A DNA stretch of 64,000 nucleotides, from positions 1,488,001 through 1,552,000 of the forward strand of contig AP026125.1 of the NCBI GenBank assembly GCA_030295235.1, read 5' to 3'. The position numbers were made by a program, and so were the translations under genes. Below the pieces are notes generated by a model that was not told where the DNA came from, did no database searches, and was given only the letters and a program-made list of their open reading frames with translations. Below are positions 24,587 to 59,761 of the stretch, piece by piece; the first letter of the stretch is position 1; each line of letters begins with the position of its first letter. This DNA is from Fistulifera solaris (Eukaryota).

Positions 24587-25152
24587 GTTCCAGAAATCCT
24601 GTAAATCGGTGGCTTGGATTAATAAAGGAAAGAAAGAGTTAACCTTATTTCCAGAAATTATGGAAACGCTATTCTCAATATACAGAAATTACAGAAATTC
24701 TGTCATGGTCCAGGAATTCTGGACCAGTTTTTTCGAGCCTACCGATTACCGATGCTGCGCATCTTCCAGAATTTCTGAATACGGTGTTATGTTACATAAC
24801 GAAAGAGAGTGCGTGCGCTCCAGAGGTTCTGGAAACGGTGTTTCGATCATAACAAAGAAAGTGCAAATTCCAGAAAATCTGGAATCGCGATTTCGAAGAT
24901 CATACAGAAATTCTTTGATGGTCCAGAAATTCTGGACCAGTTTTTTGCGCCTACCGAAATGCTATGCAAGTTCCAGAAATTCTAGACACAGTGTTTCGGC
25001 TCCTATCAAAATGTTGTGCAAGTTTCAGAAGTTCTGGACCCGGTGTTTTCGTTCAAACGAAAGAAGGTGCAATTTCCAGAAAATTTGAAATAGATAATTC
25101 AGCTCATACAGATTTTCTGTGTTGATCCAGATAATCTGGACCAGTTTTTTCG
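24587..25152. repeat. Palindrome-core minisatellite array 1 (~11 units of ~52 bp)
   Basis: TCCAGAAATTCTGGA-like cores every ~50-54 bp, with CATACAGAAATTCTG-like half-units between. Confidence 0.9.
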
Positions 25153-34404: not shown

Positions 34405-34770
34405 CCAAGATTTTTTGTGTGAATGAAATGTTTACACCTGGTCCAGAATTTCTGGACCATCCCAGATATTCTGTATGAATGAAATACAATTGGTCCAGAA
34501 ATTCTGGACTACCTCAGATGTTCTGTATGAATAAAATACAACTGGTCCAGAATTTCTGGACAAGCCCAGATTTTCTGTATGGATGAAATACAATTGGTCC
34601 AGAATTTCTGGAGCACCCCAGATTTTCTGTATGAATGAAATGTTTTTAAACCGACACAGATTTTCTGTATGGATGGTCCAAAATTTCTCGAAACACCCAG
34701 AAATTCTGTATGAATGAAAAACACCCGGTCCAGCTGTTCCAGAATTTCTGGACCTCCACAGATTTTGTGC
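34405..34770. repeat. Palindrome-core minisatellite array 2 (52-bp units)
   Basis: TGGTCCAGAA(T/A)TTCTGGA at 34439, 34491, 34543 and 34595 (exact 52-bp period), followed by degenerate units. Confidence 0.92.
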
Positions 34771-34807
34771 GAACAACGACAAAAAATAATGATATTGATG
34801 TTTAGCA

Positions 34808-40370: not shown

Positions 40371-40467
40371 ATTTTTAGCGGAGACCGCTATAATTTGTTA
40401 TACAAGGTTGTTTTGTTTCTCTCCTTGCGTCGCAATAATAATGAACAGGGAATAACGCACCACAGAC

Positions 40468-40846
40468 GTTCCAAGATTTCTGGACCAAACACACAGGATT
40501 TCTGTATGATTGCATACAACGTTGGTCCAGAATTTCTGGACCAAACACACAGGATTTCTGTACGATTGCATACAACGATGGTCCAGAATTTCTGGACCAG
40601 ACACACAGGATTTCTGTATGATCGTACAACGATGGTCCAGAAATTCAGGACCAAATCACACAGGATTTCTGTATGATTGCATACAACGATGGTCCAGAAA
40701 TTCTGGACCAAGCACACAGGATTTCTGTATGATTGCATACAACGATGGTCCAGAAATTCTGGACCAATCACACAGGATTTCTGTATGATTGCATACAACG
40801 ATGATCCTGAATTTCTGGACCAATCACACAGGATTTCTGTATGATC
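40468..40846. repeat. Palindrome-core minisatellite array 3 (7 near-identical 54-57-bp units)
   Basis: Consensus GGTCCAGAAATTCTGGACCAAACACACAGGATTTCTGTATGATTGCATACAACGAT. Cores at 40468, 40524, 40580, 40634, 40691, 40747 and 40803. Confidence 0.95.
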
Positions 40847-40965
40847 GAACTGATGATTTTACAGTATTGCAAGTGAAAAAATGACGAAGAACAGCAATGA
40901 TGAAACCATTGTGGTAAACTCACATAATTTTGATTATTATTCAAGGTAGACCCTGTAAACCACAA

Positions 40966-42672
40966 ATGTATCGCCTGCGAATGCAAAACGCATGTATATT
41001 CGCTCAAAAGCAACAAAAATTGCAGCGAAGCAAACGACATTTCGCCGTTCGGTGTTTCACGACAACAGGAATTGACGCCTCGAGAGATCCTCTGTCGTCA
41101 TCATTTCAACAACTTGCCAATCTACACAAACCGCTACAAGAGCGTCTACTGCAATTGGGATGGAATATACCTACTGAAATTCAAGCCAAGACATGGCAAG
41201 CCGCTACCGACGGTCGAGATGTGTTGGGGCGTTCGAGAACGGGGAGTGGCAAAACGATGGCCTTTCTCTTGCCAACGCTACAACGATCCATCAATAACAA
41301 TGCAGGTATCAAACTGATTCTTTTACCGACACGAGATCTGGCGCAACAGATTGATGAACAAATCAAAATTTTGTATCCGCTGGATGAAACGATCCATAGC
41401 AATGATCATATCGTAATCGTGGGTGGTGTCGACAAACGTCGAGAATTGAGACGATGGCAAGAGACTGCACCTCAGTTCATTACAGCGACTCCGGGGCGAC
41501 TTCGCGATCATTTAGAGGGTGCCGACAACGCGTTTGTTTGTGATTATTTGCAAAATGTGGACGTACTAGTGTTAGATGAAGTCGATCAGCTTTTGGAAAT
41601 GGGATTCAAAGATGACATTGATGCTATTATCCAGCATTTGCCCCAACAACGACAGAATTTATTGTTTTCGGCGACTATTTCACCCAAAATTCAGCGAGAA
41701 CTGGTAACGCGAGGCTGGATTCATTCGAATCACTTATTTGTCGATTGTATTTCCGATGCGGCGGCGACTGAAGTACAAGATGATCCGTTCGATATGGAAC
41801 ACGATGCCGACAATAAGTTGACGACCGCCACTGCTCCCACTCTAGCGCACACACATGTATCGCAATCGCATGTCGTCCTTCCACCGCATCGTTTGGTGAC
41901 AGGGATTGCTCAAATTGTTCTCACATTACTCCAACAAGAAGACAAAAATGCCAAGATATTAGTCTTCTTTCCAACAACAAGTATGGCAATTTACTTCACT
42001 CGACTGTTTCAATGGGCACTCGGTCGACACGTATGGTCCATGCACGGACAAAAAAGTCAAATGGCGCGAAATGTGACACGGCAGGCATTTGCGGCGGCCT
42101 CGCGCGGTGTTTTGTTTACGACCGATGTGTCGGCGCGTGGTATGGATTATCCCTCGATTACCAACGTTGTACAAATCGGAGTGCCGGCTAGTCGCGATAC
42201 CTATATACATCGGCTGGGTCGCACAGGACGGGGAATGGATAGTTTGAGTGGAAAAGGATTGTTGGTGCTCTTGATGGAACAAGAAGAGAAAATAATGAAC
42301 CGGGAGTTACAAGACATGGACATTCCTTTTGATGAGAGTCTTTCGAGGTTATTAGAACGCCCGGTCTGGCCGGATTTAGAATTGGAATTGACCCAGTTCG
42401 CGCATGACATGAAACAAGGCGAACTTCCCGAAATGGTTAAGGAAGCGGAAAGTGTTTACAAGAGCTTGCTATCGATCTATCAGTTACAGTTAAAAGAAGA
42501 CACAGTAGTGGAGACTATGAATAGTTTGGCGGCCCAAATGGGTCTTTCGGGACCGCCAGTGCTGGAAGAAAACCAGGCCGCTTATTTAGGTTTGTCGAAG
42601 CACCCATTGTTAAATATTCACCGGCCATGGAAAATGGGACAGCGCTTTGATGTAGGAGGACGGAGAACATGA
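40966..42672 (+). CDS. DEAD-box RNA helicase (Mss116/RH26-like, probably organellar)
   Basis: PTEIQ, RTGSGKT, PTRDLA, TPGRL, DEVD, SAT, TDVSARGMD, YIHRLGRTGR. Confidence 0.92.
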   Translation: MYRLRMQNACIFAQKQQKLQRSKRHFAVRCFTTTGIDASRDPLSSSFQQLANLHKPLQERLLQLGWNIPTEIQAKTWQAATDGRDVLGRSRTGSGKTMAFLLPTLQRSINNNAGIKLILLPTRDLAQQIDEQIKILYPLDETIHSNDHIVIVGGVDKRRELRRWQETAPQFITATPGRLRDHLEGADNAFVCDYLQNVDVLVLDEVDQLLEMGFKDDIDAIIQHLPQQRQNLLFSATISPKIQRELVTRGWIHSNHLFVDCISDAAATEVQDDPFDMEHDADNKLTTATAPTLAHTHVSQSHVVLPPHRLVTGIAQIVLTLLQQEDKNAKILVFFPTTSMAIYFTRLFQWALGRHVWSMHGQKSQMARNVTRQAFAAASRGVLFTTDVSARGMDYPSITNVVQIGVPASRDTYIHRLGRTGRGMDSLSGKGLLVLLMEQEEKIMNRELQDMDIPFDESLSRLLERPVWPDLELELTQFAHDMKQGELPEMVKEAESVYKSLLSIYQLQLKEDTVVETMNSLAAQMGLSGPPVLEENQAAYLGLSKHPLLNIHRPWKMGQRFDVGGRRT

Positions 42673-42735: not shown

Positions 42736-43935
42736 TTAAGAAATTTGCCGCCCTTCGTCATGATCTCCTTCATCGTCATCAGCTGTCTTCATTCTTTTGG
42801 CAGTAGGAGACGATGGCTCAGTTTCACACTCTCGATCTGCACTCTTAGAATCATCTCTCAGTTTCTTCTCTACCAGGATAGATTGTGGGTCGTCGAACCG
42901 TAGTTGTAGACTACCGCCTTCTTCTCTTTTCTCTTGAATCGCTGGTAAGGGAATATCCATATGAATAAATTCTTCATAATCATCTGAACCGCCACCCATG
43001 GACCAGGTCAAACGAGTCACATTTGCTTTCGCAACTTTATTGTCCGTGATGATACTGACAGGGTCGGGAGATGATCCAAAAGTCAACCCAATCTTGTTCG
43101 TGTCTTGATATCCACTCATCTTTTCTGGCATCGGGAATCGATCCACATAAAATGGCTTGTAATGCAGCCATACATTGACAAGAAATGTGACACGACGATG
43201 TCGTCGCACGGATGCTTTGCTATCTGGATTAGAATGTTGCAACTGCTGTTCCCAAAGACCCGGCGGCATCAATTCCATCGGTGCTGCATGCAAGTAACGG
43301 CCATCGAAACTAAAATGCTTGCCACGACGCGGCCAACTGATCCACGATGTCGGTGTATTGTTGGGTAGAATCCATTCTCCCGATAAACTGTGGATACGAG
43401 TGTCAGTGACAAGAGTCGGTGCTCCCAAATCGGTCAAATACGTGACCGTCGACAAATGCGGATGGATATAGGTGTTTCCACCGCACAGTATCCGAAGATC
43501 TTCATCTTTATCCCAGTGAAACGTGATTCCTGTTTCCTCTGTCATTCCCTGCATCGCATATCGCCCCGTATGTTCTGGAGAAGGACGTATTTGAACCCAC
43601 CATTCCGCACCCGCCACGGTGGAGGAATCATCGAGGGCCGTGCCTTTGACGTGATGATGAAAGACATCCAGCGCCATTTGCTCCAGAGCAAACTGAGGCT
43701 TATCATGAACACCGATCCAAAACGTTCGAGGCATGAGTCCGCTGTCGGCAATTTCACAATCGAGTAGCATGTCATCCAGTGCCGCCTCGGGAAAGTTTGC
43801 CGAGGAGGAGCGCGGTTCATAGGAATGAATGTGAATGTCTTGTGCCGTGAATGATGAATTCGTGGTAGTTCGACCTTCTTCGTCCAAGCGAAAGTTAATT
43901 TCAATTTCTTCGGGGCTTTGATGTTCTTCTGCCAT
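42736..43935 (-). CDS. 2-oxoglutarate/Fe(II) oxygenase-like protein
   Basis: GAEWWVQ, HWDKDE (HxD), STVTYL, FDGRYLH and RVTFLVNVW fit the HxD..H..R pattern. Confidence 0.7.
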   Translation of the reverse strand: MAEEHQSPEEIEINFRLDEEGRTTTNSSFTAQDIHIHSYEPRSSSANFPEAALDDMLLDCEIADSGLMPRTFWIGVHDKPQFALEQMALDVFHHHVKGTALDDSSTVAGAEWWVQIRPSPEHTGRYAMQGMTEETGITFHWDKDEDLRILCGGNTYIHPHLSTVTYLTDLGAPTLVTDTRIHSLSGEWILPNNTPTSWISWPRRGKHFSFDGRYLHAAPMELMPPGLWEQQLQHSNPDSKASVRRHRRVTFLVNVWLHYKPFYVDRFPMPEKMSGYQDTNKIGLTFGSSPDPVSIITDNKVAKANVTRLTWSMGGGSDDYEEFIHMDIPLPAIQEKREEGGSLQLRFDDPQSILVEKKLRDDSKSADRECETEPSSPTAKRMKTADDDEGDHDEGRQIS

Positions 43936-44207
43936 TTTGATAATATGTTTGTGAATGTCCAGTATCTCCTTTTCGATGAAAGGAAAGAAAAGAAAAACGA
44001 GTGGGTGTCATATCGCGTAGGCTCACTTAGAGCGGGACTGAAAATGGGTTTAGTCGTCAAAAAGTCGTCTTCTTTCTACTTCACAGTAAATTTTGCAGAA
44101 CTGTTACAAACATCGTATCGCGACTCAAAGTCTAAGTACAAAAAAGATCCAGATTTTCACATAACTCATAACCCTACTGGAGTGCGGAAGCGCGCGACGA
44201 CGATGAC

Positions 44208-44601
44208 TGTCAGATTGAGGGTCTGGACGTCAATCAGAGTGGGTTATATATCATGGATCGGGGTAGAAATACGACGTGATTGGGTTGGCTCTGTGGTTCG
44301 ATTCCACAGTACGTTAGTATTTTCAACATGGTAACGTGCAGGGTTCGAACCCTGGCGGAGTGAGTTTGTTGCCGACTCCTGTGAAGCCGGGAGGATAAAA
44401 GAATAGGGCTTGAAGCGGTCTCAAGTGAGGAGGCTGAAGGGCAAAACAGTACGATCATGATAGTATAAGGCCAGGGAGGATGTCAGATTGAGGGTCTGGA
44501 CGTCAATCAGAGTGGCTTATATATCATGGATCGGGGTAGAAATACGACGTGATTGGGTTGGCTCTGTGGTTCGATTCCACAGTACGTTAGTATTTTCAAC
44601 A
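44208..44601 (+). mobile_element. Intact non-autonomous miniature LTR retrotransposon (TRIM), 394 bp
   Basis: LTRs 44208-44328 and 44481-44601 (121 bp, TGTC..AACA, one mismatch). PBS TGGTAACGTGC at 44329; purine-rich PPT ATAAGGCCAGGGAGGA abutting the 3' LTR; TSD GATGAC at 44202-44207 and 44602-44607. Confidence 0.93.
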
Positions 44602-44698
44602 GATGACCTCGTCTTTTTTTTCTTCGTCAATATAGCTGTCGCATTTTGCATTCAATTGTCAATGTAACTGGCGCTCTATTCAATTGTAAGACGCAACA

Positions 44699-45652
44699 AT
44701 GCCATCCAATAAACGACGTAGAGCAACAGAAGGAGCCATGGTATTTCCCGTGGCCATGTTCGTCATCGGCGTAATGATTGTATTTTCGGAAGAGCCCATT
44801 ACGATGGAACGAAGTATACAAGAAGCGCAAAAACAAGTTTTAGTGCAACAAACGACTGTACAAGCACAGGGACCAATCGATCCGGTTGATTGTGAAGCAA
44901 TCACACCGAGAGAACCCGTGAATATATCGAATATGCAAAGTTACAAAGAAATACCATATCAAGTATCCTTTTCGTGGTGGGATCGTCGACTCAAACATCC
45001 ACAATTCGGAACGGCCGAAATGGAATACAATGACTCGGTACAAACCGTACAACGACTACTGCGTGATACGGAAGGTGCTTTTATTGATGTCGGTGCCAAT
45101 GCAGGTTTTATGACACAATACGGTCTCGCACTCAAGCGACCTACCTACGCGATCGAACCCATTTCCTACAATGTTGCAAAATTATGTGAAGGCTATCGAG
45201 CAAATGTTGCCAAGAAGTACGCGCTCGCAGCGACTCCATTCTTTCTTTATCACGCGGCGGCTGGGAGTGAGTACGTACCGGAAATCGCCATTACCCGACC
45301 TGCCGATGAGGTGGGATACTTTGATCAATCGTCCTTGTCCAGAGCGGCCGTTTTGCAACAAAAAGTGACCGAAGAACGAATACCACTCATCACAATTGAT
45401 TCCATCATTCCACTTTCACTACCCGTTGCAGTTCTCAAAATTGATGTGCAAGGCTACGAGTATGCTGTTCTACAAGGAGCCAAGCAACTGCTGCAACGAG
45501 AAGAACGGTATCCCGAATATGTCTTCTTTGAAGAAAGTCCGACGCACATTCAAAAAGCAGGCTTTCGCGTGGGGGCTTCACAGGAGTTTCTCGAAGAAAT
45601 GGGATACAATTGCATGAAAGATGGTGGGGATATTCTGTGTCAGAAGCTGTAA
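44699..45652 (+). CDS. FkbM-family SAM methyltransferase, membrane-anchored
   Basis: N-terminal TM; FIDVGANAG, YAIEP, LKIDVQGYEYAVLQGA. Confidence 0.88.
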   Translation: MPSNKRRRATEGAMVFPVAMFVIGVMIVFSEEPITMERSIQEAQKQVLVQQTTVQAQGPIDPVDCEAITPREPVNISNMQSYKEIPYQVSFSWWDRRLKHPQFGTAEMEYNDSVQTVQRLLRDTEGAFIDVGANAGFMTQYGLALKRPTYAIEPISYNVAKLCEGYRANVAKKYALAATPFFLYHAAAGSEYVPEIAITRPADEVGYFDQSSLSRAAVLQQKVTEERIPLITIDSIIPLSLPVAVLKIDVQGYEYAVLQGAKQLLQREERYPEYVFFEESPTHIQKAGFRVGASQEFLEEMGYNCMKDGGDILCQKL

Positions 45653-56666: not shown

Positions 56667-56793
56667 TTGCAGGACGTAGACCAATACCTTTGTATTTTAA
56701 TTGCTCGTTTTAGTTCGACATACAGGTTTAAGAGTGTGCACCTAGCGTTGATTAAAGTTTTCAGAACACATAGGTAGAGCGTAACAAAACCGA

Positions 56794-57248
56794 TTCCAGA
56801 AATTCTGGAATCGGTGGTTGCGGTCATACTAAACATCTGCGGTATTCCGAGAAATTCTAGATTCGGTGTTGCGATCACATGGAAATGCTGCGCTCGTTCC
56901 AGAAATTCTGGAATCGGTGTATGCGATGATACCGAGATCGGGTGTTGTTCCAGAAATTCTGGAATCGATATTTCCATCATACCGAGATACTGTGGCCGTT
57001 CCAGAAATCCTGGAACCGCTGTTCGAACTTTGTGGTGGTTCCAAAAGTCTGGAATCGCTGTTTTGTATCATAAGGAGTAAAGAGGCTCAGTGGTCGTTCC
57101 AGAAATTCTGGGATCATTGGAGGTTGCGATCATACAGAAATTCTGTGGATATTACAGAAATTCTGGATACGGTAGTTGATATCATACAAAAGCTGAGTTT
57201 GATTTCCAGAAAATCTGGAAATTAATGGAGGTTCCAGAATTTCTGGAA
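56794..57248. repeat. Palindrome-core minisatellite array 4 (degenerate ~51-52-bp units)
   Basis: TTCCAGAAATTCTGGAATCG-like cores recur about ten times; intervening sequence diverged but related (GATCATAC..). Confidence 0.9.
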
Positions 57249-57597
57249 GTTCTTTGCCCCGGTGCTAGGTAATGAAATAAATAATTGGCGCGAACGCCGG
57301 CCCGCGACTTGACTGGCAGACAGCAGACAGCAGACAGACGTTTAGAAGGTACCTGTACAATGTACATTATACTATCAGATTTACTGCCAAGGAGATACTA
57401 AACGGTGCCCGCGACAACCGCATCCACCACCCATCATCCAACCACACAAAAGATAGCCACCAATCGATCGATGATTTGTAACGGATACGGCAAATCAGAT
57501 TCACCTCTACTGCTGCATTTGCAATTGGAAGCGTTGTCTTTACTGACCAGACAGCGCTTAAGACCCAAGACAAGCATACTGAATACAAAGTGGCGAA

Positions 57598-59086: not shown

Positions 59087-59207
59087 AGTATAAAATTGTG
59101 TACGTACACAGCAAGTTAATGACAATGACTTTTTCAAAGCTGGACTAGATGTTTACATGATATCTCGTTTGTCATTTCCCTTGCAATAAAATCGCATCAG
59201 TTCGATG

Positions 59208-59665
59208 ATACAGAAGTTCTGTGTGTTTGGTCCAGAAATTCTGGACCATCTTTGTTTGCAAGCATACAGAAATCCTGTTTGTTGGGTCCAGAAATTCAGG
59301 ACCACGTGTTTGCGATAAAACAGAAATTCTGCGTGTCTGGTCGAGAAATTCTGGAACTTCTGTGTTAGCGTTGATTCAGAAACTCTCTGGCATGTCCAGA
59401 AATTATGGAACATATGTGTACGGTCCAGAAATATAGAAATATCGGTGTTTGCGATCTTTTAGAATTTTTGTGGTTGTTCCAGAAATTCTGGAATGGGTGT
59501 TTGTGATCATACAGAAATCCTGTTTGATTGGTCCACAAATTCTGGACCATTCTTCTTTGCAGTCATACAGACATTCTGTGCGATTGGTCCAGAAAATCTG
59601 GACCGTAGTATTTGATTGTGATCATACAGAAATGCTGTGTGTTTGGTCCAGATATTCTGGACCAT
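59208..59665. repeat. Palindrome-core minisatellite array 5 (opposite orientation to array 3)
   Basis: CATACAGAAATCCTGT..TGGTCCAGAAATTCTGGACC units, the reverse complement of the array 3 consensus. Confidence 0.9.
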
Positions 59666-59761
59666 CATTATTTTTGTAATCGATGGAGCGTCGCGTCAAG
59701 AACAATAATAATATTTTTTCCCGTTGTCTCAAACGAGACGACGACGATTCAAAAATCAAGG

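Follow-up and report, generated by a model that had tools for sequence, protein, structure and literature searches.

The subject of this study is a terminal-repeat retrotransposon in miniature (TRIM) of 394 bp, which lies at positions 44208-44601 of a 64,000-nt stretch of Fistulifera solaris DNA (contig AP026125.1, positions 1,488,001 to 1,552,000 of the forward strand); this whole stretch is referred to as the window, and all positions are counted from its first letter. By its reading the window is gene-dense eukaryotic DNA, and the element sits between two divergent genes. Two 121-bp long terminal repeats (LTRs) of the TG...CA type enclose a short non-coding interior of 152 bp, which has a primer binding site (PBS) at its start and a polypurine tract (PPT) at its end, and the whole is flanked by a GATGAC target-site duplication. 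With all of these features present, the element is a TRIM, as a preliminary description of this DNA had stated. The parts of the element are as follows.

44202-44207, plus strand: left target-site duplication GATGAC, the same 6 nt occurring again at 44602-44607
44208-44328, plus strand: 5' LTR, 121 nt, TG...CA, direct repeat of 44481-44601
44245-44251, plus strand: TATATAT, candidate RNA polymerase II (Pol II) TATA box for the genomic transcript, from reading of the sequence
44329-44339, plus strand: PBS TGGTAACGTGC, abutting the 5' LTR and opening the interior
44473-44480, plus strand: PPT AGGGAGGA, the final 8 nt of the interior, abutting the 3' LTR
44481-44601, plus strand: 3' LTR, 121 nt, direct repeat with the same T-arm/acceptor string as the 5' LTR, T-stem from 44565
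44602-44607, plus strand: right target-site duplication GATGAC, matching the left copy; the empty-site contig described below resumes at 44602

The two LTRs are alike at 120 of 121 positions (99% identity), with the sole difference at LTR position 36, and the interior has stop codons in all six frames and thus no coding capacity. No second copy of the LTR or of the PBS was found elsewhere within the 64-kb window. Reverse transcriptase, integrase and gag were absent from a Pfam scan of 22 of the 24 window open reading frames (ORFs) of at least 250 aa (the helicase and FkbM ORFs were left out), and those 22 ORFs gave ordinary cellular families. We propose that the element is a young non-autonomous TRIM in a diatom-like nuclear genome. 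Its mobilisation in trans would fall to an autonomous LTR element, none of which was found in the window. The TRIM occupies the common upstream region of the divergent ORFs 42736-43935 (minus strand, without a Pfam family) and 44699-45652 (plus strand, FkbM-type methyltransferase), and the insertion accounts for 400 of the 763 intergenic bases between both ORFs. The relatives of the FkbM-type ORF come from metagenomes, plus a Nitzschia transcriptome record at 40% identity, and on this ground we take the host to be diatom-like. An ESM Atlas search with the neighbouring helicase pointed to 'Eukaryota' and no further.

Contigs of four public runs were aligned to this region at 80% likeness (X1 and X3 are DNA and X5 is a metatranscriptome), and stretches without X3 or X5 cover were not counted as evidence. 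One metagenomic X1 DNA contig of 974 nt links 44201 to 44602 with 6 ambiguous letters and omits 400 nt. Since this contig represents the empty site, in which the duplication is present once, the element inserted recently and its insertion is polymorphic. The summed contig depth over the element was 83-1870 in most bins versus 11.2 in the X1 flanks, and many loose contig ends were located at 44480/44481 and 44596-44602, which are other insertion sites and solo LTRs; an X3 DNA contig also closes as a 304-nt cycle, the sum of one LTR-plus-interior period (273 nt) and a 31-mer. The TRIM family is young, has multiple copies and is polymorphic for insertion, and the depth is not convertible to a copy number.

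A contig of a further run, X2 ('organism A'), is about 85% identical to the left flank 44064-44155 (14 differences in 92 nt) and joins 44155 to 44683 without the element and its surroundings; it may represent a second haplotype, a homeologue or a sister strain. In a metagenome scan, a 20-mer from the 5' end of the LTR was found at three loci, all chance matches in bacterial coding sequence, and in scans of viral contigs there was no match to the LTR 5' end, to the T-arm/acceptor string or to the PBS together with the palindrome behind it. A protein-level search of 1.84 billion representatives with a 41-aa frame that stays open across the LTR recovered no family copies and gave two weak repeat-like matches (E 3e-6 and 5e-4, 37-38% identity).

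The element is also present in an RNA library. The sole X5 metatranscriptome contig on it is linear, 286 nt long and covers 44284-44568, thus crossing the T4 run near the end of the 5' LTR, the whole interior and most of the 3' LTR, and its start lies about 33 nt behind the TATATAT at 44245-44251. This contig fits a transcript of the form R-U5...U3-R (R, terminally repeated region; U5 and U3, unique 5' and 3' regions) that starts at about 44284 and has an R of less than about 30 nt, which is a hint, contig ends being weak evidence. Variants at about 12% of depth were present at 44353, 44354 and 44363, and no variant was seen at 44338, 44310 or 44583 in the aligned contigs, which can drop rare variants and in which about two interior haplotypes are visible.

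The end of each LTR has the form of the 3' part of a tRNA. On recheck, the letters and positions that had been given for this string, for an upstream GACGTG and for the PBS were all correct, and the LTR end has exact tRNA geometry: its T arm is canonical, the acceptor strand after it has 7 nt, and a discriminator A comes last. In the 5' LTR the pieces are located as follows.

44273-44278, plus strand: GACGTG, proposed 5' acceptor-like strand, paired with 44310-44315 in the minimum free energy (MFE) fold of 44273-44316
44292-44308, plus strand: T-arm-like hairpin, stem TGTGG (44292-44296) and CCACA (44304-44308), loop TTCGATT (44297-44303)
44295-44305, plus strand: B box GGTTCGATTCC, perfect match
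44309-44316, plus strand: acceptor-3'-strand-like GTACGTT (44309-44315) and discriminator-like A (44316), pairing with 44332-44339
44320-44323, plus strand: T4 run, proposed RNA polymerase III (Pol III) terminator from reading of the sequence, passed through by the X5 RNA contig

Downstream of A44316 follow GTA (44317-44319), the TTTT and CAACA (44324-44328), and the local hairpin 44291-44309 has a folding energy of -7.4 kcal/mol. The string GGTTCGANNCC has four matches in the 64 kb, all within the element. Shuffled sequence has 0.5 on average, and none of 100 shuffles reached four. Loosely defined T-arm hairpins (5 bp, G-U allowed, TTCRANN loop) number six in the window, two of them in the element, and 3.8 on average in 300 simulated windows; a loose hairpin of this kind is common by chance, and therefore the strength of the observation lies in its register. 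The 8 nt right behind the T-stem pair with PBS positions 4-11, leaving the TGG of the PBS for CCA, and these 8 bp between 44309-44316 and 44332-44339, including one G-U in which G44338 of the PBS faces U44310 of the LTR mimic, occurred in every fold containing both segments. By our own arithmetic the chance of the 8-nt register match is about 8e-5 for one fixed register. When CCA was added to the mimic in the script, the duplex with the PBS extended over 11 bp with one G-U, as the preliminary description had claimed, and reached -15.7 kcal/mol, versus -17.5 kcal/mol for a perfect 11-mer and -8.3 kcal/mol for the duplex as encoded, without CCA. The complementarity of the mimic to the PBS side breaks at position 12. 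On the strength of these sequences we take the LTR piece and the element's primer to be probably homologous rather than alike by coincidence.

Coincidence would mean that the LTR took up an arbitrary fragment of a tRNA or of a short interspersed element (SINE), as in Helenus, a group of TRIMs with tRNA-derived LTR sequences reported from fungi, six animal phyla and Selaginella (Kojima 2024, PMC10886601), and that the PBS match and the hairpin described below have no function and no causal link. The same source has many Helenus families, with 113 in Pucciniales fungi alone; given such numbers, a match in tRNA type is to be expected now and then, and the ACGT in the matching core is self-complementary. 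We nevertheless consider such an accident highly improbable, since the 8-nt match is exact in its register and the complementarity runs far beyond the acceptor, to 30 bp with a z of -3.13.

As a gene, the piece was not recognised. ARAGORN at default settings found 0 tRNA genes in the LTR, and Rfam, run on 1001 nt and on 161 nt, returned no tRNA up to a cutoff of E<=10; its best weak match was the T arm of a tmRNA model (10.3 bits, E 0.5). The idea that the whole LTR is an intron-bearing tRNA was rejected, the relaxed ARAGORN call of 146 nt needing a 52-nt intron and running from 44171, outside the LTR, to 44316. A full cloverleaf is absent, with just 13 nt between the acceptor-like 5' strand and the T-stem, and judged by its letters the LTR piece looks like a tRNA with the middle deleted. 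We scored the A box against the consensus TRGCNNAGTGG, which has 9 specified positions, and the best match was the following.

44286-44296, plus strand: A-box-like or D-arm-like TGGCTCTGTGG, 8 of 9 positions, overlapping the B box by 2 nt

TGGCT...TGG is present here, at a spacing to the B box that is not tRNA-like, and the second-best match, at 44232, agrees at 7 of 9 positions. Because the best A-box-like motif overlaps the B box and the next one lies 63 nt upstream of it, a type-2 Pol III promoter in the LTR appears doubtful. The putative Pol III RNA 44222-44323 gave a z of +0.13, and the T arm was not formed in its MFE fold.

Among the divergent copies, one contig has an insertion inside the GACGTG at 44273-44278, one has a 2-nt deletion at 44292, and divergent LTR contigs carry 4 substitutions plus indels in 44256-44285 and no listed substitution in 44292-44316. 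A 592-nt contig from X1, also divergent, matches 44230-44316 with 6 substitutions and 10 gap letters and is unlike the LTR beyond; its alignment ends at the discriminator-like A44316, and the tRNA-like unit may occur there in another context. Another X1 contig follows the LTR to 44238 (LTR position 31), continues with letters like the last 13 nt of the LTR and is then unrelated, and may be a short LTR variant without the TATA and the tRNA-like middle.

We compared the folding of the proposed minihelix with that of the RNA leader. The pairing of GACGTG with the acceptor-like strand, as put forward in the preliminary description, does form in the MFE fold of the 44-nt minihelix 44273-44316 (-11.1 kcal/mol), but with a z of -0.88 this fold is unexceptional, and 39 of 200 shuffles fold as well. 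The leader 44284-44400, at -43.5 kcal/mol, has a z of -3.13, with 0 of 200 shuffles as stable, and its predicted structure contains the following features.

44285-44364, plus strand: U5-PBS-leader hairpin, predicted, 44285-44320 paired with 44328-44364, 30 bp
44339-44354, plus strand: perfect 16-nt palindrome CAGGGTTCGAACCCTG, a second B-box-like motif on both strands, local hairpin -7.6 kcal/mol

In this predicted hairpin the tRNA-like 8-mer pairs with the PBS, GGUUCGA with the UCGAACC of the palindrome and GCUCUGU with GCGGAGU further out. The similarity score of the U5 arm with the reverse complement of the leader arm was reached by 0 of 2000 shuffles, the pairing probability is about 1 for 10 of the 11 PBS bases in the leader fold, and opening the PBS by force costs about 12 kcal/mol; a conformer with local hairpins only has -24.5 kcal/mol. 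Read antisense, the PBS side also resembles the 3' end of a tRNA and carries CCA, and is 2 nt short between T-loop and acceptor. For this shortfall of 2 nt, the palindrome behind the PBS was rejected as an exact complement of a canonical tRNA T arm. The centre of the palindrome, TTCGAA, is self-complementary over 6 nt, so the local hairpin would show a palindromic loop, and a palindromic exposed loop is the layout of retroviral kissing-loop dimerisation sites. One variant copy differs at 44353-44354 within the palindrome.

The preliminary description had proposed that the element may make its own tRNA-mimic primer. Under such a scheme the LTR would be transcribed, by Pol III or in a longer RNA, into a tRNA-like minihelix, which would be cut by RNase Z behind A44316, receive CCA and prime the element's own PBS. 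The exact T arm, 7-nt acceptor strand and discriminator, the lack of an encoded CCA and the trailer with T4, as in a tRNA gene, speak for it, and so do the low chance of the register (about 8e-5), the 11-bp duplex that comes close to a perfect match in energy, the lack of substitutions in 44292-44316 in the divergent LTR contigs (though with the one 2-nt deletion at 44292), and the separate divergent contig whose alignment ends exactly at 44316. However, neither ARAGORN nor Rfam recognises the LTR, the A-box-like motif overlaps the B box or else lies 63 nt upstream with 7 of 9 positions, the putative Pol III RNA has no T arm in its MFE fold and a z of +0.13, the minihelix is no more stable than many shuffles and has an insertion in its GACGTG in one divergent copy, and the RNA contig begins at 44284, downstream of GACGTG, and passes the T4. 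Moreover, no such LTR-PBS complementarity was found in any Helenus family that Kojima examined (PMC10886601). We therefore regard a self-made minihelix primer as distinctly unlikely.

The letter at 44338 bears on the same question. Established retroviral biology has it that the PBS of progeny DNA is recopied from the primer in the plus-strand step. When retroviral PBSs are mutated, they return to the sequence complementary to the tRNA that in fact serves as primer (PMC11181671). A primer made of LTR RNA should overwrite the PBS in this way and would predict an A at 44338 in many copies, and an unmodified RNA primer should be copied well past 11 nt, with complementarity beyond position 11. Instead, the G-U of 44338/44310 is uniform among the copies seen and the complementarity breaks at position 12. 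Because there is no A variant at 44338 and the complementarity stops at position 12, the working primer most likely has a C opposite G44338, and the evidence leans against a self-made primer.

Self-priming of the Tf1 type, in cis or in trans and without CCA, would anneal about 44284-44316 to the PBS, after which the partner's RNase H would cut behind A44316 and the 3'-OH would be extended. The 5' 33 nt of the RNA, from the start hinted at by X5, are almost wholly paired with the PBS and leader, which is the layout of self-primed elements, and the complementary 8-mer would lie 26-33 nt from the RNA 5' end hinted at by that one contig; such priming is established for Tf1/Sushi, and 12% of plant LTR elements are predicted to use it (PMC6317226). 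In cis, however, the template would end after the copying of only 15 nt (44317-44331), and strand transfer would need an RNA to the end of the 3' LTR, whereas the X5 contig stops at 44568 and is uncircularised, which weakly argues for an R of less than about 30 nt. In addition, the TGG would stay unpaired, the duplex would have just -8.3 kcal/mol, a PBS starting with TGG is typical of CCA-ended primers, and the uniform G-U at 44338/44310 counts against this route as well, so that we hold it to be very unlikely. Put together, the idea that either the LTR minihelix or the 5' end of the genomic RNA is the working primer, cut behind A44316 by RNase Z with CCA addition or by the RNase H of the partner, seems unlikely to us.

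Instead, we favour, with moderate confidence, priming by a host tRNA, with the U5 piece as a tRNA relic or mimic that folds over the PBS as a leader hairpin. What U5 carries at its end would derive from, or imitate, the last third of a tRNA (T arm, 3' acceptor strand and discriminator), and it would match the PBS because it is homologous to the priming tRNA species. In the genomic RNA this piece would not be a separate molecule; it would fold onto the PBS and leader in the predicted hairpin of about 30 bp, and this hairpin may mask the PBS and organise initiation, by analogy with retroviral U5-leader and primer activation signal (PAS) structures. Reverse transcription would be primed by a host tRNA ending in ...GCACGUUA-CCA, with C rather than U opposite G44338, i.e., the expected end of the host primer tRNA would be GCACGTTA. 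The tRNA piece may have arisen by a template switch of the reverse transcriptase (RT) onto the co-packaged primer tRNA in minus-strand synthesis or, alternatively, from a tRNA-derived SINE inserted into the LTR, as proposed for Helenus.

Several points weigh against host-tRNA priming with a masking U5. The host tRNA with a matching 3' end is deduced from the PBS, and the acceptor pair it implies, A1:U72, is unusual for elongator tRNAs. Past position 15 the PBS side departs from a canonical tRNA complement, being 2 nt short from T-loop to acceptor, whereas the U5 side has perfect tRNA geometry, no CCA and a short trailer with T4, as in a eukaryotic tRNA gene. Such features would not be required of a sequence that serves just to pair with the PBS. 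The hairpin is without covariation support because all copies seen are nearly identical, and one variant copy changes A44363, which is paired in the hairpin model, with no compensating change seen. Finally, the absence of G>A at 44338 is not proof, as contigs can drop rare variants.

Alternatively, the piece would be neither primer nor mere stem, but a protein-binding mimic or a DNA-level TFIIIC site. It could possibly bring to the PBS the partner's RT, its Gag or a host factor that binds tRNA, in the manner of the HIV-1 tRNA-like element with LysRS, or else attract TFIIIC for insulation or targeting. The perfect B box and the canonical T-arm geometry are in keeping with this, and tRNA mimicry beside the PBS is known in HIV-1 (PMC5113203, PMC5689005). 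On the other side, the T arm is melted into the long hairpin in the computed ensemble, and the argument comes from the letters of the DNA, with conservation seen just among near-identical copies; we consider a role of this kind distinctly improbable.

Elsewhere in the window, four intergenic arrays of 51-56-nt tandem repeats were observed (24684-25150, 34420-34794, 56793-57257 and 59197-59673), which are built around the palindrome GGTCCAGAAATTCTGGACC / TTCCAGAAATTCTGGAA; we take this palindrome to resemble stacked nGAAn units of heat-shock elements. A further 56-nt tandem repeat of at least 7 copies (61-91% identity) lies at 40409-40906, just upstream of the DEAD-box helicase ORF 40930-42672.

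The preliminary description knew of nothing comparable, which is outdated: TRIMs with tRNA-like LTRs have been published as Helenus (PMC10886601). Helenus has been grouped with Cassandra and Ajax as TRIMp3 (PMC10886601). Like Helenus, our element is miniature and non-autonomous, with PBS, PPT and target-site duplication, and has a tRNA-like piece with a GGTTC B box in each LTR, and its size is near that of the Selaginella Helenus family (LTR 120 bp, interior 85 bp; PMC10886601). Unlike in Helenus, what can be recognised of a tRNA here is its 3' third alone. The Helenus description uses a box A (TRGCY...YGG) and a box B (GGTTC) at tRNA-like spacing, whereas here box B is perfect and the box-A-like motif overlaps it, and ARAGORN and Rfam, which make no tRNA call here, differ from the tools of the Helenus paper (tRNAscan-SE and Censor/Repbase). 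The element is thus Helenus-like in a loose sense, with a partial tRNA piece. Kojima considered a primer role for the LTR tRNA piece of Helenus and rejected it, no LTR-PBS complementarity being reported for any family there (PMC10886601), whereas 8 encoded bp between LTR and PBS (11 with CCA) and the predicted extended hairpin of 30 bp are present here. In addition, the host is a diatom-like stramenopile, and no stramenopile is listed in Table 1 of the Helenus paper (PMC10886601). Compared with the described Helenus families, the complementarity to its own PBS and the exact tRNA register of the LTR piece would be new, as far as the sequences tell.

Cassandra elements are plant TRIMs with 5S rRNA-derived Pol III units in their LTRs, for which Pol III transcription has been validated (PMC10886601). 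They share with our element a fragment of a small-RNA gene inside TRIM LTRs, but the fragment is 5S there and tRNA-like here, and their description has no link between insert and PBS. Tf1/Sushi elements are known to self-prime, and the same is predicted for the Tcn1 and TAR lineages (PMC6317226). Like these elements, ours would have an RNA whose 5' end, as hinted at by X5, pairs with the PBS and folds back on it, whereas their PBSs are not complementary to a tRNA and do not start with TGG. The primer of the Tf1 type consists of the first 11 nt of the RNA, and copying runs through a long R/U5 loop. In our element the loop spans just 15 nt, and the piece complementary to the PBS has the geometry of a tRNA.

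In avian retroviruses, U5-leader and U5-IR stems surround the PBS. HIV-1 has a PAS (PMC11181671) and a tRNA-like element bound by LysRS (PMC5113203, PMC5689005). The retroviral PBS segments resemble the structure predicted for our element in that a structured U5/leader occludes or presents the PBS and can mimic or pair with the primer tRNA's T arm or anticodon arm, and differ from it in that they belong to autonomous viruses, that the HIV-1 mimic copies the anticodon domain, and that the PAS of HIV-1 is complementary to the T arm of the tRNA, while U5 has the same sense as the tRNA here. Our literature searches found no paper describing an LTR tRNA-like piece complementary to its own PBS, and among the matches listed for the PBS 10-mer (titles and abstracts) none dealt with transposons or tRNA. 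The word 'TRIM' in a diatom genome paper proved to be merely 'trimmed' and 'Trimmomatic' and was discarded.

The element shows the LTR-PBS complementarity that was sought in Helenus and not found there, and does so in a lineage, the diatoms, that is off the Helenus list. In the conservative reading, the element would offer a compact natural example of PBS masking, achieved by a primer-tRNA copy in U5 that folds over the site, and the U5 piece may go back to a switch of the RT from its template to the packaged primer. Should the self-primer reading be true after all, the element would be the first retrotransposon to provide a tRNA-shaped primer of its own, which Kojima looked for in Helenus without success, and it would link the tRNA-primed and the self-primed retroelements.

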